Assembly (NCBI GenBank): GCA_964455935.1
Contig: CAYVZU010000001.1
Location: 55,142 to 119,141, forward strand
Direction of reading: 5' to 3'
DNA length: 64,000 nt
DNA from: an uncultured Fibrobacterota bacterium
GTDB lineage: Bacteria; Fibrobacterota; CAYVZU01
Shown one piece after another: positions 2,900 through 47,644 of this stretch (position 1 is its first letter; each line of letters opens with the position of its first letter). Position numbers and translations under genes: made by a program. The notes under the pieces were generated by a model. That model was not told the DNA's origin and did no database searches. It worked only from the letters and a program-made list of their open reading frames with translations.

Positions 2900-4366
2900 T
2901 TATTCCATGCCCCAGATTTCGATCTCGCTGATGGGGGTAATGTTTCGCTCATCGCCGGGGTAGAAATCCAGAATCGTGACGCGCACCAGGCGAGTCTGCT
3001 TGACCGGGAGTACGCAACACTGGGCTCCGATTTCATCACGCAGGTCCCATTGATGCGTCGTGCCGTCCGCGAACCCCACCTCCACCGTGCGGGGCCGGTT
3101 GAAACGGCGGTCCACGCTTGAGGCGGCCTGAAGGCCGGAATATAAAACCATGCGCGTCACGGTCACCGGCTTGCGAAACGTGAAGAGCACATAATTCTTC
3201 TCGTTGCGAAGCCCGTCTGCGGCCGCCCAGGCAGTGCCGGTCTCACGATCGGTTAAATGAGGCAGGCCCCATTCCTTATCCGGCCGGGCGGTGGTGGTCG
3301 CTGACAGGCCGGTGCATTTCAGCGGTTTTTCAATTGCGGAACCCGGAATGAAGATCCATGCCAAAACTCCCGCAAGACAGGCGGCCAATGCCAGCGCGAC
3401 CCAGCCCAGCGGCGAGAACAGGTTGTGGCGGAAACCCCGGCGCTCGACTTTTCTGCGGTCGCCCATGCGTCGATCGGTAATCCGTTTATCCTCCTGGCGG
3501 CGGGCCGTGACGGCAGCCGCCACTTTAATGCCGCTCAGCTTCTGGTCCGCCGCAACCGAGTCCAGATCGGCCAGCATTTCGCTGGCCGACTTGTACCGCT
3601 GTTCCTTGTCCTTTTTCAGCGCCTTCAGCACGATCATGTTAAGCCGGACGGGGATATCCTTGTTCAGATCGATCGGCGCCCTGGGCTGCTCATTGACCTG
3701 CTTATAGGCGATCGCCAATGGGTTGTCCGCCGAAAAAGGCGGCACTCCGGTCAGCATCTCGAAGAGCACGACGCCCAGGCTGTAGAGATCGGTTTGCGCA
3801 TCCAGGGTCAGTCCTTCGGGTTGCTCGGGCGACATATATTCGGGCGTGCCCACGGTCATTCCGGTATTGGTGATCCGCGTATTGGCAAAGATCTTGGCGA
3901 TGCCGAAATCGGACACTGCGATCTTCCCGTTGCGATCGATCAGCACGTTGTGGGGTTTGATGTCGCGGTGAATGATGCGGTGTTCGTGCGCATATTTCAG
4001 TGCGCGCAGAATCTGGCGGGCGATTTGAATGGCTTCGCCGACCTTCAACCGCTTCTCGCGGTCGATTTTGCGGTCCAGGCTTTCGCCTTCCACATACTGC
4101 ATCACAAAAAACCGGTGGCCCTCGTCTTCGCCAAAGTCGTAGATCGTGACGATATTGTGATGCTGGAGCATGGAAATCACGCGCGCCTCGCTGTCGAAAC
4201 GATTCGTGAATTCCTTGTTGCGCGATAGCTCGGGCGGAAGCACCTTAAGGGCCACGATCCGGTTTAGCGAGTCCTGCCGCGCGCGGTATACGTCGCCCAT
4301 ACCGCCGCGGCCGATGCGTTCCAGGATCGCGTATCCGGCCAGACGAGCGCCTTCGGTCAATTGCAT
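2900..4366 (-). CDS. Ser/Thr protein kinase with TM segment and C-terminal discoidin (F5/8 type C)-like extracellular domain
   Basis: Hanks kinase motifs GRGGMGDVY, ALK, HRDIKPHNVLI, DFG, TPEYMSPE. One TM helix. C-terminal TAW...NEK...ISEIEIWG resembles discoidin/F5_F8-C. Start chosen at MQLTEG. Confidence 0.8.
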   Translation of the reverse strand: MQLTEGARLAGYAILERIGRGGMGDVYRARQDSLNRIVALKVLPPELSRNKEFTNRFDSEARVISMLQHHNIVTIYDFGEDEGHRFFVMQYVEGESLDRKIDREKRLKVGEAIQIARQILRALKYAHEHRIIHRDIKPHNVLIDRNGKIAVSDFGIAKIFANTRITNTGMTVGTPEYMSPEQPEGLTLDAQTDLYSLGVVLFEMLTGVPPFSADNPLAIAYKQVNEQPRAPIDLNKDIPVRLNMIVLKALKKDKEQRYKSASEMLADLDSVAADQKLSGIKVAAAVTARRQEDKRITDRRMGDRRKVERRGFRHNLFSPLGWVALALAACLAGVLAWIFIPGSAIEKPLKCTGLSATTTARPDKEWGLPHLTDRETGTAWAAADGLRNEKNYVLFTFRKPVTVTRMVLYSGLQAASSVDRRFNRPRTVEVGFADGTTHQWDLRDEIGAQCCVLPVKQTRLVRVTILDFYPGDERNITPISEIEIWGME

Positions 4367-6444
4367 GAACGACCTTTTCGGTGAAGAGCGAAAAACGCTA
4401 GGAATATACACAACACCGCCAAGGCCGACAATGCCAGCCACTCATCCCCGGGCACAAGTCCCAGCGTGACCTTTTTGGACGCGGTGAAATTCCAACGGCT
4501 TACCGTGAACCGCGAAACAAACCGGCTTACGGCCGGCATCTCGTCAAAAGGGGCGACCGCGCCGGCAAAAAGGATCTGCGGAATCAACGCCAACGGAAGT
4601 GCTGCCAGGGCCCGTTCGGTTCGTTGCGCGATCGCCGAGATCGCCAGACCCATGGCGGTTGCGGCCAAGGCAACAATGGAAAATGAGAGCAAATGAAAAC
4701 GCGCGGCTCCTTCCAGAGGAATCGCGGTGTTGACCAGAAAAACGAGAATCCCGGTCTGGACCAGCGCCAGGACCGCGAGAAAAGTAAATTTGGCCAGAAG
4801 GTAAGGGCCGGGCCGCAGGCCCATGCGCCGCTCGCGCTGGAGCAAGCCGTGCTCTTTGCAGATCTCTTTGACGGAATTAATGCAGCCAAACCAGATGCAG
4901 CTGATTCCCATGCAAAAAAGAAGGGGCCACTGGTTCGTGTTACGGCCAAATACAAGAAAGATCAATCCCCCGATAAGCGGCGCCTGGCCCAGCGTTAATA
5001 GCCAATGGGCGGCATCGCGCCGCAGAAGAATAGCTGTTCGGTGGCACAGCAAGGCAAGCTGGCCAAGACCCGAAGGGCGCCGCGATAGCCGGCATTCCGC
5101 GGCCCGGTCTTTTTCGGCGAAAAGCTCTTCACGGTTCTTGAGCCGCGATTCCACATAGTCGCGGTGCAGCGGCGAAGTCCGGAATCGTTCAGACAGGGTT
5201 GCGGAGGACTCGCCCTCGATTTGGCGATAAATGTCGGCGATTTCTCTGCAACCGAAATAGTCGCCCAGGACAGCGGGAGGGCCAAAAAAAATCAGCCGGC
5301 CCTGGTGCATGAGGCCGACCAGGTCGAATTCCTGCACATGGCTTAGCCGGTGCGTGGAAACAAGGACCGTTCGCCGGCGGTCCGAAATCCGGCGCAGAAG
5401 CTCCATTGTCTTCGCTTCCAATACCGGGTCCAGATTGGCCGTGGGCTCGTCCAGGGCAAGTACCCGGGGGTCGGCGGCCATTTCCATGGCCAGACTCACC
5501 CGCTTGCGTTGGCCGCCGCTAAGAAAACGAACCGGCCGGCCTGCGCACTCGTTGAGTTCAAGGACATCCAGCAGACTCTGCGATTTTCGCGCAATGTCGG
5601 TCTCCACCGGCAGGCGAAGCGCGTTAAGGGCAACCGCGAAGCGGACGGTCTCGCGGGGGGTGAGCAGTTCGGCCAGCATGTCGTCCTGGGGAACAAATCC
5701 CGAAAGCGCGCGATTGGGCCGCACGTCAAGGGGCACGGCATCGTAATAAACGCAACCGGCCGCGGGCGCCTCGAGACCGGCCAAAATCCGCAGGAGACTG
5801 GTTTTCCCTGCGCCACTGGGGCCCAGCAATCCCACAAATTCGCCCGGTTTTACGGCCAGGCTCACGGGGTGCAGAATGGGTCTGGTTCCCGCCCGTTTTT
5901 CGATCCCGGTCACGTCGATCCGCATCCCCGAGAAAGGGAGGCGCTGAAGATCGCCATTCCAGACGGCAAACTGTTCCGGACCAATCGAAAGCCGGTCGCC
6001 GTCGGCCAGTCTGGCTTTTCGTTTCCGTCCCGCCGGACCGGCAAACGATGTGTTGGAATGAGCCGTCTGAAGATACAGCGTAATGCCGCCGCTGTGCGGC
6101 TCCACCCGCTGTTGAAAAAGCGTGGAGGCCTGTGCAGGGCGATCCGCATCCGAGGCCTCCTGAATCAGCAGGATAAGAACGGCGTCGGCCGACGCGACCT
6201 CCAGCTCCTGGGTGCCGACTTGAATGCGGTCTCCGGCTGCAATCCGGTCCGCGGCAGCGGGGCGTCCGTTTAGAAACGTGCCGAACGTGCTGTTCTCATC
6301 CAGAAGAAAAAGGCCTGCGTCGCGGCGTTCGATGCAGGCATGACGGCGTGAGCAAAGGGGGTTGTTCAAAACGAGATCATTCTCGAGGGCCCTGCCAATG
6401 CGCAAGGGCCGCTCCTGGGTGGGAGAAAAAGTGCGGGTGATCAC
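4357..6444 (-). CDS. FHA-FHA-ABC ATPase-ABC-2 permease fusion transporter (Rv1747-like)
   Basis: Two N-terminal FHA-like segments. Walker A GPSGAGKTS, signature LSGGQRKRV, Walker B LALDEPT. C-terminal multi-TM ABC-2 domain. Overlaps the kinase start by ~10 nt. Confidence 0.8.
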   Translation of the reverse strand: MITRTFSPTQERPLRIGRALENDLVLNNPLCSRRHACIERRDAGLFLLDENSTFGTFLNGRPAAADRIAAGDRIQVGTQELEVASADAVLILLIQEASDADRPAQASTLFQQRVEPHSGGITLYLQTAHSNTSFAGPAGRKRKARLADGDRLSIGPEQFAVWNGDLQRLPFSGMRIDVTGIEKRAGTRPILHPVSLAVKPGEFVGLLGPSGAGKTSLLRILAGLEAPAAGCVYYDAVPLDVRPNRALSGFVPQDDMLAELLTPRETVRFAVALNALRLPVETDIARKSQSLLDVLELNECAGRPVRFLSGGQRKRVSLAMEMAADPRVLALDEPTANLDPVLEAKTMELLRRISDRRRTVLVSTHRLSHVQEFDLVGLMHQGRLIFFGPPAVLGDYFGCREIADIYRQIEGESSATLSERFRTSPLHRDYVESRLKNREELFAEKDRAAECRLSRRPSGLGQLALLCHRTAILLRRDAAHWLLTLGQAPLIGGLIFLVFGRNTNQWPLLFCMGISCIWFGCINSVKEICKEHGLLQRERRMGLRPGPYLLAKFTFLAVLALVQTGILVFLVNTAIPLEGAARFHLLSFSIVALAATAMGLAISAIAQRTERALAALPLALIPQILFAGAVAPFDEMPAVSRFVSRFTVSRWNFTASKKVTLGLVPGDEWLALSALAVLCIFLAFFALHRKGRSCN

Positions 6445-7022
6445 GTGTTGGGGGAGTCCGGCTTCATCCGCAGGATGGATAGAATTTGGCGCAGCGCTTC
6501 CTCGAAGTTGTCGTTGATAACCGTGTGCTCATAGCGGCCTTGGGTTTGGGCGAATTCGATTTCTTTTCGCGCGTTGTCCAAGCGAAGGGCGATGGCCTGT
6601 TCCGTCTCGGTGCCGCGTTTTCGAAGCCTGCGTTCCAGCTCTGCCAGCGAGGGCGGAAGGATCAGAATGCCGATATTCTGCGGAAAGACCTTGTCGAATT
6701 TTTTCTTGCCGTACACATCGATGTCGAGGACAATGTCATTGCCCTTCTCGATGGTTTCGCTCACCGGCCGGATTGGTGTACCATAGAAATTGGCATGCAC
6801 CTCCTGCCATTCGGCCAATTCGTTGTTTGCGATGAGAGAGGCAAACTCCTGTTTTGAAACAAAACGATAGTCCCTGCCCTCGCGCTCATTGGGCCGCGGC
6901 TTGCGCGTGGTGGCGGAAATCGAGAAAATGAGTTCGGGAATGGACTCCAACACGCGCTTGAGGAGTGTTGTCTTGCCCGCGCCCGAGGGCGCGCTGATGA
7001 CGAAGATTCGGCCTTTGTTCAT
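6441..7022 (-). CDS. gmk: guanylate kinase
   Basis: P-loop SAPSGAGKTTL and SISATTRKPRPNEREGRDYRFVS, matching the GMP-binding region of guanylate kinases. Confidence 0.9.
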   Translation of the reverse strand: MNKGRIFVISAPSGAGKTTLLKRVLESIPELIFSISATTRKPRPNEREGRDYRFVSKQEFASLIANNELAEWQEVHANFYGTPIRPVSETIEKGNDIVLDIDVYGKKKFDKVFPQNIGILILPPSLAELERRLRKRGTETEQAIALRLDNARKEIEFAQTQGRYEHTVINDNFEEALRQILSILRMKPDSPNT

Positions 7023-7050
7023 AAGGATAAAAATAACTGCTCAGGTCCCC

Positions 7051-7182
7051 ATGAAACCACAGAGAGAAATCCGAGTTGAGAATGAGAACACAGAGGGAAA
7101 TCTTTCCGGCGCAGCGCGCCGGAAAAGCTTTTTCTCCCCTCTGTGTTCTCTTCTCCGACCTCTGTGTTACTCTGTGGTTTCA
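7051..7182. repeat. ~130-nt compound imperfect palindrome with reiterated ACACAGAG/CTCTGTGT motifs and a central CCGGCGC-AGC-GCGCCGG core
   Basis: GAAACCACAGAG...GAGAACACAGAGGG...TTTCCGGCGCAGCGCGCCGGAAA...CCCTCTGTGTTCTC...CTCTGTGTTACTCTGTGGTTTC. Outer 12-bp arms and inner 14-bp arms pair. Lies immediately 5' of the gmk start on the minus strand. Confidence 0.5.
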
Positions 7183-7233
7183 AGATTCTTTTCAGGAGAC
7201 GTGAGTAGTTATGAATCAAATTGGGTTTACATT

Positions 7234-7605
7234 TCACAATTTTCCCCGGTGCGCCTGAAGCATGCCCTTGAGTACCTGCGCGATCAACTTGTAGGCGGCA
7301 TCGGAATTCCCGGCCCGGGCCGGCGCTTTGGGTTTTCGCATCGCGGTCAGTTTCTGCAGGGCGCCCGCGGTTCGAAGCAGTCGGGTCCGGGAATCGGAAG
7401 GCACCTTTTTGGGAAGGACGCTAATCGGGCCGGAGTTGGGGTTGGTCCGGTAACGGCATTGCATTTGGCAGTTTTGGTGCTCCCAGCACTTGCGCGTTGC
7501 CGCGATGCGGCCCGACCGCCTTCCTTCATAGTACATGCAGCGCAAACATACCCGGGACACATTGCCCGTGCTGTCCTGGCGGGATTCCCAGCACTCCATA
7601 AGCAC
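7234..7605 (-). CDS. hypothetical small Cys-rich protein
   Basis: ORF with six Cys (C..C...C.....C...C) and a GTG start. No recognisable family and no SD. May be non-coding. Confidence 0.2.
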   Translation of the reverse strand: MLMECWESRQDSTGNVSRVCLRCMYYEGRRSGRIAATRKCWEHQNCQMQCRYRTNPNSGPISVLPKKVPSDSRTRLLRTAGALQKLTAMRKPKAPARAGNSDAAYKLIAQVLKGMLQAHRGKL

Positions 7606-7761
7606 AAAATAAATGGTGCGACGACGGTGAGGCTTGAAGACCGATCATTTTCCGACAGAAGCGGATGCCGACTCGTGGAAAGGCCGAAGGCGTTTTGAAA
7701 GTTGGTCCCAACCCGCGAACGGGGCAACGGCAGCCCTATTCGCGGGCTCCTTCTTGAAGGA

Positions 7762-8373
7762 TCACAAACTGATCAGGTAACCGACATTTACTTTCAGGTT
7801 GCTGTTTCTCTGGTTAATATCATTGGAGCTGGAGACCTTCGTCAGACCGAATGTATAGCCTGCTCCGATTACGATTTTCTTTGCGGCTATGTAAGTCGTC
7901 CCAATGGCCAATCCAAGTTCAAAGGGGCTATAATCACTCCTTAAGTCCAGCATTTCCGCCGTCATTGCGCCGGTCACTGGATTCGTGTTTTCCGTTTTGG
8001 ATTCTGCGGCCAACAGGAGCCCTATTTCCAAACCCGCATTCAGGGCCGCCGCAGGAATCGGGGAAAACGAAAATTGTACAGGTACGGCCAGGTAGCCCAG
8101 GCTTTCAAAGCATTTCTTTGTGTAGATAGGATCGGGTTCCTGGATGATGGCGCCTTTGGTTACAAAATTTACTCCTGCCAACAAACCCATTTTGTCTTTA
8201 AATGGATATGAATAGCTGGCGCCCACATTGAAGCCAAGTTTTGGGCTGGTGTATTCGGCATCATCGCCAAGGTATGTCGACATATTCACTCCGCCTCCAA
8301 CCACCACGTCGCGGGCGGCAAATACCATTGCCGAAAGTGACAGGACGGCAAAGCACACCTTCAGACATTTCAT
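7762..8373 (-). CDS. outer-membrane beta-barrel protein (OmpA-like small barrel)
   Basis: Signal peptide MKCLKVCFAVLSLSAMVFA. Alternating amphipathic beta-strands ending in an aromatic C-terminal residue. Lies in a lower-GC patch. Confidence 0.6.
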   Translation of the reverse strand: MKCLKVCFAVLSLSAMVFAARDVVVGGGVNMSTYLGDDAEYTSPKLGFNVGASYSYPFKDKMGLLAGVNFVTKGAIIQEPDPIYTKKCFESLGYLAVPVQFSFSPIPAAALNAGLEIGLLLAAESKTENTNPVTGAMTAEMLDLRSDYSPFELGLAIGTTYIAAKKIVIGAGYTFGLTKVSSSNDINQRNSNLKVNVGYLISL

Positions 8374-10307: not shown

Positions 10308-10547
10308 AGGAGGGCAATGGGCAAGGGGTCAGGAATTAAGCGCCGTATCGGGCGCTCTTGCTTCCGCGGCTTTGCGGCGGCGGCCGGATGAGCCTGAAAA
10401 GTCAAATCAGGGGTTCGGCGCGAAAGCCACAAGACAGAGGAGCTTCGCTACGCCTTTCCATTCGACTTGTCCCTAATTCCTATCCCCTAATCCCTTCTTC
10501 GGGACATGGCTTGCCGCGGAGTGCCTCAATTATTACCTTATGTACCT

Positions 10548-11864
10548 ATGGAAATCTGGGATCAGACCCTCGCCCTTGTCAAAGAAACGGTAAACCCGCA
10601 AAGCTTTCATACCTGGTTTGCTCCCATCGAACCGCTTTCGTTCGAGAACAACACCCTGATTCTCCAGGTCAAGAACAGCTTTTTCTCCGACTGGATCCAG
10701 CATAACTATCTCAATCTCATCCGCAAGACCGTCAAGCGCGCGGCCGGCAGCGATGTGGAGATTGTGATCCACGCCGCCGAACCTTCCGATTCGCAGGCGG
10801 CGCCCGCGGGATTCGCCTTTCGACCTACGTCGTACCGGCCCGATTATCTCAATGACCGTTATGTCTTCGACCATTTTGTGGTTGGCAATAGTAATCAGTT
10901 TGCCTGCTCCGCGGCCCGGGCCGTCTCCGAAGCGCCCGGAAAAACAAAGTTCAACCCGCTCCTTATCTACGGCGGCGCCGGGCTGGGCAAAACGCATTTA
11001 ATTCAGGCTATTGGCCATTACGTCCTGCTTAAGAACGCCGGAGCCAAAGTCTATTACACAACCTCCGAACAGTTTACCTTCGATTTTATCGAGTCGATCA
11101 AAAACAATAAAATAGCCGAGCTCTCGAATTTTTACCGCAGCGCCGATGTTCTCCTCATGGATGATATCCAGTTCTTTATTGGCCGCGAACGCACCCAGGA
11201 GGAATTCTTCCACATCTTCAACACGCTCTATCAGAACCAGAAGCAGATTGTCCTGACCAGCGATCGCGCGCCCAAGGAACTGCAAGGCATGGAAGAGCGT
11301 CTGGTGAGCCGGTTTCAATGGGGCCTGTTCGTGGATATTCAGCCGCCCGATCAGGAGACACGCATCGCCATCATCCGCAAGAAAACCGAACATGAACGCA
11401 TCAGCATCCCCGACGATGTGGTCACGTTCATTGCCGATAATGTCTCATCCAATATCCGTGAACTCGAGGGCAGCATCATCAAGTTGATGGCCTATTCGTC
11501 GTTGACCAAGAAGGACATCTCCCTCGGGCTGGCCAAGGAAATTTTAAAAGCCAATATCCAAACCGAGAAGAAGCGCATTTCGGTTGATTCGATCATCGAA
11601 GCGGTGTGCAAGTTCTATGGCGTCCCCGAGAATGCGATCCGAGGCAAGAGCCGCAGCAAGGAAGTGGTCCTGCCGCGAATGGTCTCGATGTTTTTGGCCA
11701 AACAACTCACAAGCCAGTCCCTCAAGACCATCGGCCTTCAGTTCGGAGGCCGCGATCATTCCACCGTGATCCACGCGATTCAGACAATTGAAGGGAAAGC
11801 CGCGGCGGAAGCGCAATTTCAAAACGAACTCAAATCCATCGAGAAAAGCGTCGGCCCCAAATAG
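10548..11864 (+). CDS. dnaA: chromosomal replication initiator DnaA
   Basis: N-terminal DnaA domain, AAA+ Walker A GGAGLGKTHL, Walker B LLMDDIQF, and C-terminal DNA-binding helix RMVSMFLAKQLT...FGGRDHSTVIHA. Start chosen at MEIWDQ. Confidence 0.9.
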   Translation: MEIWDQTLALVKETVNPQSFHTWFAPIEPLSFENNTLILQVKNSFFSDWIQHNYLNLIRKTVKRAAGSDVEIVIHAAEPSDSQAAPAGFAFRPTSYRPDYLNDRYVFDHFVVGNSNQFACSAARAVSEAPGKTKFNPLLIYGGAGLGKTHLIQAIGHYVLLKNAGAKVYYTTSEQFTFDFIESIKNNKIAELSNFYRSADVLLMDDIQFFIGRERTQEEFFHIFNTLYQNQKQIVLTSDRAPKELQGMEERLVSRFQWGLFVDIQPPDQETRIAIIRKKTEHERISIPDDVVTFIADNVSSNIRELEGSIIKLMAYSSLTKKDISLGLAKEILKANIQTEKKRISVDSIIEAVCKFYGVPENAIRGKSRSKEVVLPRMVSMFLAKQLTSQSLKTIGLQFGGRDHSTVIHAIQTIEGKAAAEAQFQNELKSIEKSVGPK

Positions 11865-44922: not shown

Positions 44923-45981
44923 TTATTGGGCCGTCACGGTTTCGGTGACCAGCTTCACTTTGACGCCGTCGACCAGGTTGCCCATTCCGGCCTTCACAAA
45001 GAGCTGTCCTTCGTCGATTCCCTGCAGGATCTCATACATGCTTCCGCCGCGAATCCCGGTCTGCACCGCGATTTTGCGCGCCTGATCATTTTCGACCAGA
45101 AAGAGGAAATTCCGATCGCCTTCCTGCACCAGCGATTCCATGGGAACGGTGATTGCGTTTTTCCTCTCCTCCACCACAATCGAGGCGGTCACAAACATGC
45201 CTGGCCGCAAACGGCGTCCCGGATTGGCAAACAGCGCCTCGATGGAGAACGAATGGCTCGCGGCCCCGCCCGAAAGTGAAACCAACGTGACGCGGCCCTC
45301 GATTGTGTCGGACCCAAGCGCAATGCGGGCGGGCTGGCCCACGGCGAAGCGGTGAATCACGGCTTCGCTCACCTGCGCTTTGAGGCGTACGCGGTCGAGC
45401 GTTGCCAGATCCACCAGCGGCCGCCCGCGGTCAACCGTGCTGCCCAGGGATTGATAGATCTGGGTCACGGTACCGCTATAGGGCGCTGTAAGAATTTCCG
45501 TTTTGGCCGCATATTTGTAGCTGGCGCGGGCGGCCACCAGCCCGCTCTCGACCTGGTCTACGATCTCCTGGGACACCCCGCCTTCCTGGGCCAGAGCGTC
45601 AAGACGTTCCTTGGATTTTTCGGCGTTCTTGTATTGAGCCTCGGACATTTCCAACGGCGAAGGCATATCGGGATCCATCCGCAGCAGGCGTCCGCCTTTT
45701 GCGACGCCCTCCCCAACCCGGGCATATATCTCCTGCACCTGGCCCGGCACATTGCAGACCAGTGTCGTCTGGCGCTCGCCCTCCAACGTTCCGCCCACCA
45801 GTTCAATATCACGAAGAGTCCCGCGCTGCACATTGAGTGTGGTCACGGGAATGCCCTCGCGCTTCTGAATCTCCTCGATCGTCTCCGCTTTCATCTTGGC
45901 CTTCTTCTGACACGAGGCTGAGGCCACGGCCAGTGCCGCCATTGCGATCAAAATCAGAAGCGCCCGAACGTTGGATTTCAT
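44923..45981 (-). CDS. RND efflux periplasmic adaptor (membrane fusion protein, lipoprotein)
   Basis: Lipobox LAVASASC, then biotinyl/lipoyl, beta-barrel and MP domains typical of AcrA/HlyD. Confidence 0.85.
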   Translation of the reverse strand: MKSNVRALLILIAMAALAVASASCQKKAKMKAETIEEIQKREGIPVTTLNVQRGTLRDIELVGGTLEGERQTTLVCNVPGQVQEIYARVGEGVAKGGRLLRMDPDMPSPLEMSEAQYKNAEKSKERLDALAQEGGVSQEIVDQVESGLVAARASYKYAAKTEILTAPYSGTVTQIYQSLGSTVDRGRPLVDLATLDRVRLKAQVSEAVIHRFAVGQPARIALGSDTIEGRVTLVSLSGGAASHSFSIEALFANPGRRLRPGMFVTASIVVEERKNAITVPMESLVQEGDRNFLFLVENDQARKIAVQTGIRGGSMYEILQGIDEGQLFVKAGMGNLVDGVKVKLVTETVTAQ

Positions 45982-46114: not shown

Positions 46115-47644
46115 CTATTCCAATTCTCCCAGCAGCATTTTCAGATCAATCACGGCCGCATAGAATCCAAACTGGGCCGCGCTTTGGCCAAGCCGGGCCG
46201 ATTTCAATTCAATTTCGGCATTTTGCAGATCCAGCAGAGTCGAGGAGCCGACCTCGTAAGATTTCTTCCGGATGGAGTATCCCTTTTCCGCAAGGCGGAC
46301 CACCGCGTCCATTGAGCGGAGGCGATTTCGGCCGGCCTGGATCTGGTCGAAGCTCTTCTGGAGACCGATCTCCAGCCCTTTTTCCGCCTGCTTCTTACTC
46401 TGTTCAAATGAGCGCTGGTCCGAACGCGCCTGCTTTACTTTCTGCACGTTGCGAAACCCGCTGAACAGGTTGAGCGTCGCGCCGGCAAATACTCTTTTGT
46501 CATCAATCCATTCCGGGGTCTCACCATTATCAAACTGGGAGATTTTGCTGTACGAGGCGCCGCAGTAGATCATCGGGTAGAAGTCCGATTTGGCCAGATT
46601 GACCAGCTGCTCTTGCACGCGCCCGGCGCTTTCAAGCTGTTTGCGCGAGAGATTATTTGCCTCCAATTTGACCATCGCTTGTTCCCTGGAGATACTGTAG
46701 TCATCCTTCGGGAAGTCGCCTGCGATCTCAAGGCTTTCCGGCGCATCCGGCAACCCGGCTTGTTTGATCAGGACAAGATAGGCGAGTTTCTGTTCATCGG
46801 AGGATGTCTGCAGGCTGATGAGTGCCTTCTCGTGACTGAGTTGCGTGAGAAGGGTATCGAGCTCGCTTCCCTTGCCGACAACATACCGGGCTTTGGAAAG
46901 CCGGTGTGTCTCCGCGGATAGCCGTACGCTTTCTTTCTGAATTTCGAGATTCTTTTTGGCCAGAAGAGCGCCATAAAACATCTTGCGAAGATTTCCTTTG
47001 GTCGTTTGCTCGACTTCGCTCTTCTTTGTGCGAAGGCTCTGGTTATACGCTTTCGCGATTTTGAGGCCAATACCTACCTTGCCCTGCGCGAACAGAGGCT
47101 GCGACAGGGAAAGCGAAAGCGAGAGCGACTGCGGCTTGGGCATCATGGCGCCCAACACTCCATCAAGCACATTGCTGAGGGCGTATGCCCCGGGCTCATC
47201 GGTGGAAAATGGCTGCATGATGCTGCTGATCGTGGTGGAGGTGATGTCGTTGAAGGAATGCTGATAATTGGCCGAAGCATCAAGTTTCGGCGTGGCCGAG
47301 CCATAGGCTTCATAGATCTGATAGCGGGTTTTGTTGATCTCCTCTTCGACTTTCTTGAGTTCTTCGGAATTGCGCAGGCCCGATTCAACCACCTGTTCCA
47401 CCGTATAAACCGCGGCCGGAGCCATCGCAAAAAGCAGAAGGCATAGGAAAGCAGCAATTGAGATTGTTGTCCGAGCGCATCTCAAGGAGGATTGCGCGGG
47501 CCAAAGCCTGTGTGAAAATGGTTCCGGCAAGGCGCGCGAAAAAGACGCATCAAGAGAAGATGCGCCGATGGAGCGCAACGTGGCTGGGACCGTTTGGAGC
47601 TTGGCGACGCCGGAAAGCCTCCTTGAGATGCGCTGGCAGGTCAT
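46115..47644 (-). CDS. TolC-family outer-membrane efflux protein
   Basis: Two repeats of the OEP coiled-coil/barrel motif. ATG at 47644 overlaps the tetR stop as ATGA. The hydrophobic signal-like segment starts only ~65 aa in, so the true start may be an internal non-ATG codon. Confidence 0.7.
   Translation of the reverse strand: MTCQRISRRLSGVAKLQTVPATLRSIGASSLDASFSRALPEPFSHRLWPAQSSLRCARTTISIAAFLCLLLFAMAPAAVYTVEQVVESGLRNSEELKKVEEEINKTRYQIYEAYGSATPKLDASANYQHSFNDITSTTISSIMQPFSTDEPGAYALSNVLDGVLGAMMPKPQSLSLSLSLSQPLFAQGKVGIGLKIAKAYNQSLRTKKSEVEQTTKGNLRKMFYGALLAKKNLEIQKESVRLSAETHRLSKARYVVGKGSELDTLLTQLSHEKALISLQTSSDEQKLAYLVLIKQAGLPDAPESLEIAGDFPKDDYSISREQAMVKLEANNLSRKQLESAGRVQEQLVNLAKSDFYPMIYCGASYSKISQFDNGETPEWIDDKRVFAGATLNLFSGFRNVQKVKQARSDQRSFEQSKKQAEKGLEIGLQKSFDQIQAGRNRLRSMDAVVRLAEKGYSIRKKSYEVGSSTLLDLQNAEIELKSARLGQSAAQFGFYAAVIDLKMLLGELE

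Follow-up and report, generated by a model that had tools for sequence, protein, structure and literature searches.

What is a long compound palindrome doing directly in front of gmk, the guanylate kinase gene, in an uncultured Fibrobacterota bacterium? The question is raised by a 64,000-nt stretch of contig CAYVZU010000001.1 (assembly GCA_964455935.1, positions 55,142 to 119,141), hereafter the window, in which positions 7051-7182 hold nested complementary arms, a GC-rich centre and the reiterated heptamer CACAGAG. A preliminary description of this element, made from the letters alone, considered a hairpin RNA such as an attenuator or small RNA, a family resembling repetitive extragenic palindromes (REP), and an array of binding sites. 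The element belongs to a family of palindromes that is dispersed and intergenic, and whose arms also bracket small genes of the GxxExxY family (PF13366). It is probably a gene-less, non-autonomous copy of this family, which would be paired with, and mobilised by, the GxxExxY nuclease.

A dispersed family of heptamer-armed palindromes

The anatomy of the element (Table 1) agrees with the preliminary description in its nested complementary arms and its GC-rich central palindrome, of which 7103-7112 and 7116-7125 pair at 10/10 positions around a 3-nt loop. Outside the core, a pair of 18-nt arms that are 83% complementary lengthens the dyad to about 180 nt (7033-7212). The repeat count has to be amended: the 8-mer said to occur five times, ACACAGAG, is exact at only three places in the element (7088 on the plus strand, 7139 and 7160 on the minus strand), while the remaining two copies read CCACAGAG. 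It is the heptamer CACAGAG that is present five times, twice on the left side, within a purine-rich 5' arm, and three times in complementary form on the right. The 64 kb contain one further ACACAGAG; about 0.57 occurrences would be expected, and four or more were seen in 0 of 100 shuffles. The folding check that had been suggested gave -81.8 kcal/mol for the gmk-sense strand against -46.5 +/- 4.2 for shuffles (z = -8.4), and -74.1 kcal/mol for the opposite strand (z = -7.6).

The ends of the element, AACCACAGAG (7055-7064) and CTCTGTGGTT (7170-7179), recur in many other genomes. The pattern AACCACAGAG-N(90-120)-CTCTGTGGTT was searched in one genome per species, covering 185,579 species and 596 Gb, and this search yielded at least 120 loci; by our own estimate, made with uniform base frequencies, about 17 are expected by chance. 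Because 120 of the 124 matches listed carry further exact CACAGAG heptamers that the pattern does not require, mostly in both arms, the matches are not chance occurrences. Among the same matches, successive heptamer starts are separated by 8 nt in 146 cases and by 9 nt in 167. A typical copy reads aatt-AACCACAGAG-G-CACAGAG-GA-CACAGAG-aag...variable centre...ctt-CTCTGTG-TC-CTCTGTG-C-CTCTGTGGTT-aatt.

Family members thus described are about 110-140 bp long, with termini of the form (T)T/G-AACCAC ... GTGGTT-A/C(A), arms built from arrays of CAC-purine heptamers with a period of 8-9 nt, and a variable centre that is often self-complementary. On either strand, the 5' arm is purine-rich and nearly free of T; outside the element, A prevails in the 5' flank and T in the 3' flank. 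Outer extensions of at least 3-8 bp occur in a subset of members. The complementarity of the outer flanks is moderate (48-58% vs 30-36% in shuffles, at offsets 1-8), and the inner parts resemble their own partner (0.56) only slightly more than those of other elements (0.46); not every copy is a perfect full-length palindrome. The heptamer itself varies (CACGAAG, CGCAGAG, CACAAAG, CACGGAG, CACGGAT), and variant elements are sometimes nested in, or adjoin, copies of the CACAGAG type. Such arrangements are seen for CACGGAT in L023 (2482-2611) and L051 (4089-4227) and for CACGAAG in L026 (1487-1814), loci being numbered with the prefix L. Tandem clusters of elements occur in L010 and L026. Additionally, in the planctomycetes L042, L073 (Singulisphaera) and L056 (Gemmataceae), the heptamer element sits inside a larger conserved palindrome, CCCCATAGGCACCAACTTAAGGAACTC ... 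GAGTTCCTTAAGTTGGTGCCTATGGGG, which suggests mosaic composites of several repeat types comparable to bacterial interspersed mosaic elements (BIME).

The hosts among the matches listed span at least 17 bacterial phyla as well as archaea (Methanosarcinales, Methanothrix). They include Planctomycetota, Acidobacteriota, Verrucomicrobiota, Alpha-, Beta- and Gammaproteobacteria, Myxococcota, Bacteroidota, Ignavibacteria, Chlorobiota, Chlamydiota, Nitrospirota, Desulfobacterota, Omnitrophota, Chloroflexota, Gemmatimonadota, Bacillota, Abditibacteriota, Fibrobacterota and Edwardsbacteria. Complete genomes with members of the family are those of Gemmatirosa kalamazoonensis, Bacteroides finegoldii, Vineibacter terrae, Chitiniphilus shinanonensis and Sorangium So ce388/1335. 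Several genomes hold multiple loci, with three copies per 8 kb in L070, L085 (Vineibacter terrae) and L112, at least six per 50 kb in Gemmatirosa and one in the 64-kb window. Copies of the same genome have subfamily-specific spacers in common, and at times their outer arms are longer too. Rough calls of open reading frames (ORFs) leave about 100 of the 124 copies outside any ORF; the other 20 fall in rough ORFs that were taken, unchecked, as spurious. The neighbouring genes are arranged in tandem in 49 cases, convergently in 19 and divergently in 15, and all four orientations occur.

A scan of metagenome contigs aimed at the subfamily of the window gave nine general family members and did not recover the window's own locus. 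One metagenome copy, L133 (6120-6340 of Ga0074045_10000032, from an organism of 45% GC), has an arm that is about 88% identical over 48 nt to the window arm and shows the same unusual layout of three heptamers. Because both share this layout at such identity, they may represent a subfamily, perhaps in different hosts, rather than the outcome of decay alone. Viral contigs gave only three palindromes and one GxxExxY locus, so phages are not an obvious vector. A BLAST search of plasmids with the window element found no match.

Arms that bracket GxxExxY genes

An all-against-all BLAST of about 240 flanking ORFs for a recurrent neighbour gene returned only small housekeeping clusters and one pair, a small protein found twice (L086 and L107) with arms on both sides each time. 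L107 belongs to a Fibrobacterota metagenome-assembled genome, which carries both the gene and palindromes. The protein is GxxExxY (TIGR04256, 3e-46; Pfam PF13366 PDDEXK_3, 1.5e-44), about 123 aa long, with a Cas4-like PD-(D/E)XK nuclease fold; conserved acidic and lysine positions in its alignment include E27, D67, E77 and K79. A sequence search of the PDB gave no hit for it, and PADLOC and PHROGs gave only weak matches to Cas4 or to entries of unknown function. The function of GxxExxY/PF13366 is listed as unknown, and its bacterial and archaeal clades are mixed, indicating transfer (PMC3424549). The family is very large, with at least 8000 candidates at E <= 1e-10. Many of these genes come from very short contigs, a sign that the repeats may break assemblies.

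Heptamer arms bracket the GxxExxY gene in 14 of the 17 loci examined. Apart from the first pair, these comprise L142, L146 and L148, which were chosen for their protein extensions; L151, L154 and L156, which were blind picks of 123-aa proteins on long contigs, although L151 and L156 share a phoH-gatB setting and are not fully independent; L157, the single locus from viral contigs; and five of eight plasmid or chromid loci of cultured bacteria found by tblastn. The five are those of Bernardetia, Bacteroides finegoldii, Gemmatirosa kalamazoonensis, Sphingomonas parapaucimobilis and Treponema saccharophilum, that is, all four loci at least 43% identical to the query other than Prevotella, together with Treponema (43%).

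The cleanest form of the cassette is [..ACCAC + heptamers]-ORF-[heptamers + GTGGT..]. In B. finegoldii (L159; protein WP_032839887.1), it reads TTCACCACAGAGGACGCAGAGGACACGGAG ... ORF ... CTCTGTGACCTCTGTGTCCTCTGTGGTGAA, with arms that are about 90% inverted-identical over 30 nt. Other loci have the order R-L-ORF-R'-L', place the gene between two complete palindromes, or show whole arrays. The Gemmatirosa replicon holds gene-carrying and gene-less forms side by side: its GxxExxY gene (L167) lies between two complete CGCAGAG palindromes, and the gene-less elements in the same 50 kb use CGCAGAG like the two that flank the gene. Three of the L167 elements are nested composites, with a CACAGAG-type palindrome inside one of the CGCAGAG type. 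A 50-kb stretch of the Sphingomonas replicon has gene-linked arms only.

The arms have also left their mark on database proteins. In many GxxExxY entries, N- or C-terminal extensions are translated arms, for example TELHREVTERHRE, NHDHEGHEE, TTKFTKNTKN and DAENAE. Counted by hand, about 21 of 29 extended proteins are of this sort, or 13 of 21 when nine near-identical proteins are collapsed into one. Spurious extensions occur in P0121, P0124, P0135, P0155, P0169, P0202 and others, such as ...NYREDANRRDAENAE.

The cassettes are found within conserved operons. One separates fabD from fabG (L161/L166, Sphingomonas parapaucimobilis NZ_CP155749.1 482837-483265). Others occupy the arrangements radA-[cassette]-FAD protein in L159 of B. 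finegoldii and phoH-[cassette]-gatB in L151 and L156, and that of L148 stands between the large subunit of methylmalonyl-CoA mutase and the B12-binding subunit. The gene-less copy of the window is placed between a small ORF and gmk just as the cassettes are placed within operon spacers.

An insertion between a small Cys-rich gene and gmk

The core of the element ends 28 nt from the gmk ATG at 7022 (minus strand), so that its position just upstream of gmk, as first described, holds. The region 7200-7760, by contrast, had been thought to contain no convincing gene, whereas it includes a conserved minus-strand ORF (7234-7605) that encodes a Cys-rich protein. Four related contigs encode homologues of this small protein immediately upstream of gmk, with identities of 63, 50, 33 and 31%, and these homologues keep the pattern ECW..R.DS.G....VCL.C.YY...CW.YQ.C...C. 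A Pfam search with the 123-aa protein gave no match. The closest named gmk relatives belong to Raymondbacteria, Chitinivibrionales and Chitinispirillaceae.

The spacer between the small gene and gmk is short in the relatives, measuring 7 nt (L007, read by eye), 18 nt (L009), 54 nt (L008) and 145 nt (L005). None of these four spacers contains a palindrome or heptamers, and all fold weakly. The spacer of the window is 211 nt long, of which the palindrome with its outer arms fills 180 nt. Since the relatives have short spacers that lack the palindrome, the element is a lineage-specific insertion into a normally tight pair of genes, and not a gmk-specific leader. Covariation at the gmk locus is uninformative, because the four contigs with an identical gmk represent one strain and show 100% identity over the element.

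Proposed mechanism and its weak points

The association of arms and gene suggests how the family might propagate. The GxxExxY nuclease would recognise the heptamer arrays, or the hairpin or cruciform that they form; the heptamers may well be its recognition sites. It would then mobilise or maintain both its own cassette and, in trans, the gene-less palindromes, in a manner resembling the RAYT (REP-associated tyrosine transposase) and REP/REPIN systems. One copy would have entered the spacer between the small Cys-rich gene and gmk in the lineage of the window. A hairpin of about -82 kcal/mol would consequently form part of the transcript of this operon, 28 nt ahead of the gmk start codon. Because the sense direction has no U-tract, a role of this hairpin in processing or in mRNA stability would be more plausible than one in termination.

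Several observations weigh against this reading. The GxxExxY gene is nearby at only 2 of about 120 palindrome loci, and none was found in the 64-kb window, where no second heptamer-armed element was seen either. The window copy is itself atypical, with heptamer spacings of 31, 21 and 10 nt instead of the 8-9 nt of the family, and with the terminus GAAACC in place of TTAACC or TTGAACC. The three loci selected for protein extensions are a biased part of the GxxExxY sample, and among the plasmid and chromid loci, those without clear arms (40-44% identity) include two negatives, Prevotella and Persicobacter, and an ambiguous case from Fusobacteria. The variable order of the arms means that the gene might be a secondary invader and not the mobiliser. 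Finally, a search of 122 copies for target-site duplications, as direct repeats of 2-5 nt at offsets 0-12, found none clearly above shuffles; related flanks are complementary and not direct repeats.

Comparison with REP and MITE families

The suggestion of a REP-like family stands in part. The palindromes are dispersed and intergenic, occur in many phyla and reach several copies in some genomes. Like REP, BIME and REPIN elements with their RAYT (TnpA-REP, a Y1 HUH enzyme), they are short extragenic palindromes with many gene-less copies, in some genomes at least. Furthermore, the two have in common the lack of a target-site duplication, the possibility of long hairpins, family-specific sequence variants in each genome, and a small nuclease-type gene flanked by repeats, with many repeats per few genes. 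What does not hold is membership of the REP class proper. A REP is an imperfect palindrome of 20-40 nt, one end of which bears a conserved GTAG or CGTC (PMC3733652), whereas the present family has ends AACCAC/GTGGTT, arms without GTAG or CGTC, and no 20-40 nt unit. The motifs CACAG and CTGTG are absent from the text of that paper. No RAYT is encoded among the roughly 240 flanking ORFs; the gene that the arms do flank is PF13366, so that the partner is a Cas4-like PD-(D/E)XK protein of about 123 aa instead of an HUH Y1 enzyme, and its part in mobilisation is here presumed. Moreover, each arm consists of 7-nt repeats placed every 8-9 nt, and in contrast to species-specific REPs, the ends are nearly identical over at least 17 phyla and archaea.

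Bacterial miniature inverted-repeat transposable elements (MITEs), such as Correia/NEMIS, ERIC, RUP and BOX, offer a second comparison. They too are 100-180 bp long, bear terminal inverted repeats, and are gene-less derivatives of a gene-carrying element; they are intergenic, often lie within operons and are co-transcribed, and the whole element can fold as a hairpin. A classical MITE was nevertheless rejected: the terminal inverted repeats are present, but neither a target-site duplication nor a transposase among the neighbours was found. No parent with a DDE transposase was found for the family. The only gene that shares the element ends is the 123-aa GxxExxY gene, the gene-carrying form is about 0.5 kb with a minimal PD-(D/E)XK protein, and the inverted repeats consist of reiterated heptamers.

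Among other classes considered, integron attC sites were discarded for want of R''/R' cores and of a cassette array, and the heptamer repeats of cyanobacteria (STRR) as having a period of 7 and no palindrome. The sites parS and dif and CRISPR were likewise rejected.

Alternative explanations

The gene association can be read the other way round. The palindromes would spread by some other route, GxxExxY would be an invader akin to a homing endonuclease, and the window element would be an empty target site; the nuclease would cut gene-less palindromes, and its gene would be copied into their centre by repair, for which the arms would supply the homology. The cleanest gene-carrying forms (L146, L157, L158, L159), with an ORF exactly central in an L...R palindrome, fit such a history, as do the lack of target-site duplication and the transfer indicated by the mixed clades of PF13366 (PMC3424549). 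Cassettes of this kind resemble homing endonuclease genes in having a small nuclease-type ORF at the centre and sides homologous to gene-less sites elsewhere, in the long stem that encloses the ORF, and in the insertion tolerated in conserved operons (fabD-fabG, phoH-gatB). The intervening sequences (IVS) of 23S rRNA, in which long inverted repeats bound cassettes with small ORFs, may be a further parallel in these respects, and the four-helix-bundle proteins of such sequences (TIGR02436) are candidates for carriage between heptamer arms as well. Homing leaves the dispersal of hundreds of gene-less palindromes unexplained, and L107, L148, L154 and L160 show the order R-ORF-L or a gene between two complete palindromes. 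Unlike those of homing genes, moreover, the targets would themselves be a dispersed repeat and not a single conserved site in a host gene, and no intron or intein context is seen. Homing is rather unlikely, although the preference for a mobilisation of the REPIN/RAYT kind is not a firm one.

That the palindromes are simply hairpin terminators or insulators working in both directions, with a secondary or convergent dispersal, is improbable. Intrinsic bidirectional terminators have the same stem-loop, and the A-rich 5' and T-rich 3' flanks of a sizeable minority of copies would suit them on either strand: at least five T in 8 nt within 12 nt of the stem are present on 39% of element sides. In the window, the central hairpin with its T-run scores on the plus strand, which has the tail TTCTTTTC. 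Yet 61% of element sides have no usable T-tract, and copies also lie between divergent genes. The gmk-sense side of the window element lacks a T-tract (TGGGGACCTGAG), so it would not terminate the operon; the tail of the gmk-sense transcript, UGGGGACCUGAG, offers no U-tract, and the consensus of an intrinsic terminator is matched on the plus (antisense) strand only. The family stem is also several times longer than that of a terminator. Convergence cannot account for near-invariant AACCACAGAG ends and heptamer arrays across phyla, and the sequence-conserved repeat architecture and the link to a nuclease gene would be left unexplained. At most a subset of copies could act as terminators.

It is very improbable that the element is a set of sites bound by a protein of the host, whether a nucleoid protein, a regulator or a factor of the DnaA or ParB type near the origin, and that the palindrome is a by-product of the symmetry of these sites. 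The five heptamers of the window stand 10, 21 and 31 nt apart, roughly whole helical turns, dnaA lies about 3.3 kb away, and TTAACCACA agrees with the DnaA box, of consensus TTATCCACA, at 8 of 9 positions. Against this, the usual 8-9 nt spacing of the family gives no helical phasing, the likeness to a DnaA box is not conserved since the bases before AACC vary (TT, TG, CT), and copies occur throughout large contigs and complete chromosomes, a long way from any origin. To our knowledge, no host factor of such specificity is common to Planctomycetota, Bacteroidota and Methanosarcinales. An origin-linked element was rejected as well, because the proximity of dnaA in the window is not matched by any origin linkage of family copies.

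A strand-specific RNA would be expected to leave a bias between strands. In 49 tandem-gene contexts, G·U pairs numbered 175 in the sense and 179 in the antisense direction and folding energies did not differ, so that nothing points to a transcript specific to one strand; the symmetry therefore resides at the DNA level or serves both strands equally. Rfam gave no match at its gathering threshold in the window or in 18 family loci, and at E <= 10 the region 6900-7800 drew only spurious models of miRNA hairpins, far below their gathering scores. That the element is an RNA selected at this place to control gmk, whether as a leader acting in cis, as an attenuator, as a riboswitch-like hairpin or as the product of a small RNA gene, is hence scarcely credible despite the closeness of the element to the gmk start, its very stable sense-strand fold and its perfectly complementary arms (13/13 and 14/14), for the spacers of four related contigs have no palindrome, the same architecture stands at at least 120 unrelated intergenic sites with unrelated neighbours, and neither a promoter-like site nor a sense-strand terminator was found.

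Feature coordinates and neighbouring genes

Table 1. Features of the palindrome locus in the window, with the elements of the Gemmatirosa plasmid stretch L167.
Feature	Position	Strand	Remarks
gmk (guanylate kinase)	6441..7022	-	Pfam Guanylate_kin, 6e-41
Left outer extension arm ATAACTGCTCAGGTCCCC	7033..7050	.	Pairs with 7195-7212
Core palindromic element, without ORF	7051..7182	.	Ends AACCACAGAG ... CTCTGTGGTT, 105 nt between the 10-mers
Left terminal arm TGAAACCACAGAG	7052..7064	.	Family terminus AACCAC and first heptamer CACAGAG
Left inner arm GAGAACACAGAGGG	7084..7097	.	Second intact heptamer of the left side
Central GC-rich hairpin TTTCCGGCGC-AGC-GCGCCGGAAA	7103..7125	.	Variable centre of the element; T-run after it on the plus strand
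Right inner arm CCCTCTGTGTTCTC	7137..7150	.	14/14 complementary to 7084-7097
Additional right-side heptamer CTCTGTGT	7160..7167	.	Left-side partner decayed (AGAAATCCGAG)
Right terminal arm CTCTGTGGTTTCA	7170..7182	.	13/13 complementary to 7052-7064
Right outer extension arm GGAGACGTGAGTAGTTAT	7195..7212	.	18 nt, 83% complementary to 7033-7050
Small Cys-rich ORF, 123 aa	7234..7605	-	Upstream neighbour of gmk in the clade; palindrome between both
Elements of L167	6501-6648, 16403-16523, 19239-19405, 24600-25261, 32974-33041		Gemmatirosa kalamazoonensis plasmid 1, 969000-1018999

The gene dnaA occupies 10506-11864 on the plus strand, and to its left a DUF401 gene, a gene for an outer-membrane protein, the small ORF, gmk and an FHA-ABC transporter gene all lie on the minus strand. 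Given this arrangement, the replication origin probably falls around 9.8-10.5 kb, which places it about 3 kb from the palindrome; the GC skew of the window was uninformative on this point. The FHA-domain ABC transporter (4357-6444, minus strand) follows gmk, and likewise in L001, L002, L005/L006, L007 and L009. In L007 and L009, it is succeeded by a Ser/Thr kinase with a NADase_transloc domain and a UPF0102/NERD protein, and in L005 a 491-aa product with no Pfam hit on record takes the position of the kinase. This gmk-linked set of transporter and kinase may be a signalling module. Two other long-range inverted repeats are present in the window, at 47474-47634 (20-nt arms, 95% complementary, 121 nt between them) and at 45170-45312 (16-nt arms, 88% complementary, 111 nt between them). 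Both lie within long minus-strand ORFs and lack heptamer arrays.

Novelty and significance

Dispersed palindromic repeats with a cognate enzyme gene are known in kind. Three features appear to be new: arms made of reiterated CAC-purine heptamers, ends that are near-invariant over at least 17 phyla and archaea, and a PD-(D/E)XK partner. No description of the element or of its association with GxxExxY was found in Rfam or in the searchable literature, the coverage of which is incomplete, with strings including ACCACAGAG, CACAGAGGCACAGAG and CUCUGUG. Such near-invariance across phyla and Methanosarcinales is unusual compared with REP-like repeats, which are normally species-specific.

The practical consequences concern annotation and assembly. 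Palindromes of this family reside in conserved operons (fabD-fabG, phoH-gatB, the methylmalonyl-CoA mutase subunits) and are likely breakers of assemblies, and gene callers turn their arms into spurious protein extensions. If the palindromes and the GxxExxY genes do form one class of mobile or selfish DNA, this class would account for many intergenic hairpins, breaks in assemblies and miscalled protein extensions, as their common source.

For the Fibrobacterota bacterium, an inserted repeat takes the place of the leader story at gmk, and any effect on gmk expression would be a side effect of a selfish repeat. For the family, the pairing offers a concrete and testable function for proteins that are listed as "unknown" (PMC3424549). 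More tentatively, and short of what we would call probable, the palindromes and the GxxExxY genes could together constitute an unrecognised class of mobile or selfish DNA, present in most bacterial phyla and some archaea and served by a minimal Cas4-like PD-(D/E)XK nuclease of the RAYT-like or homing type; a very large orphan protein family would then gain a function.

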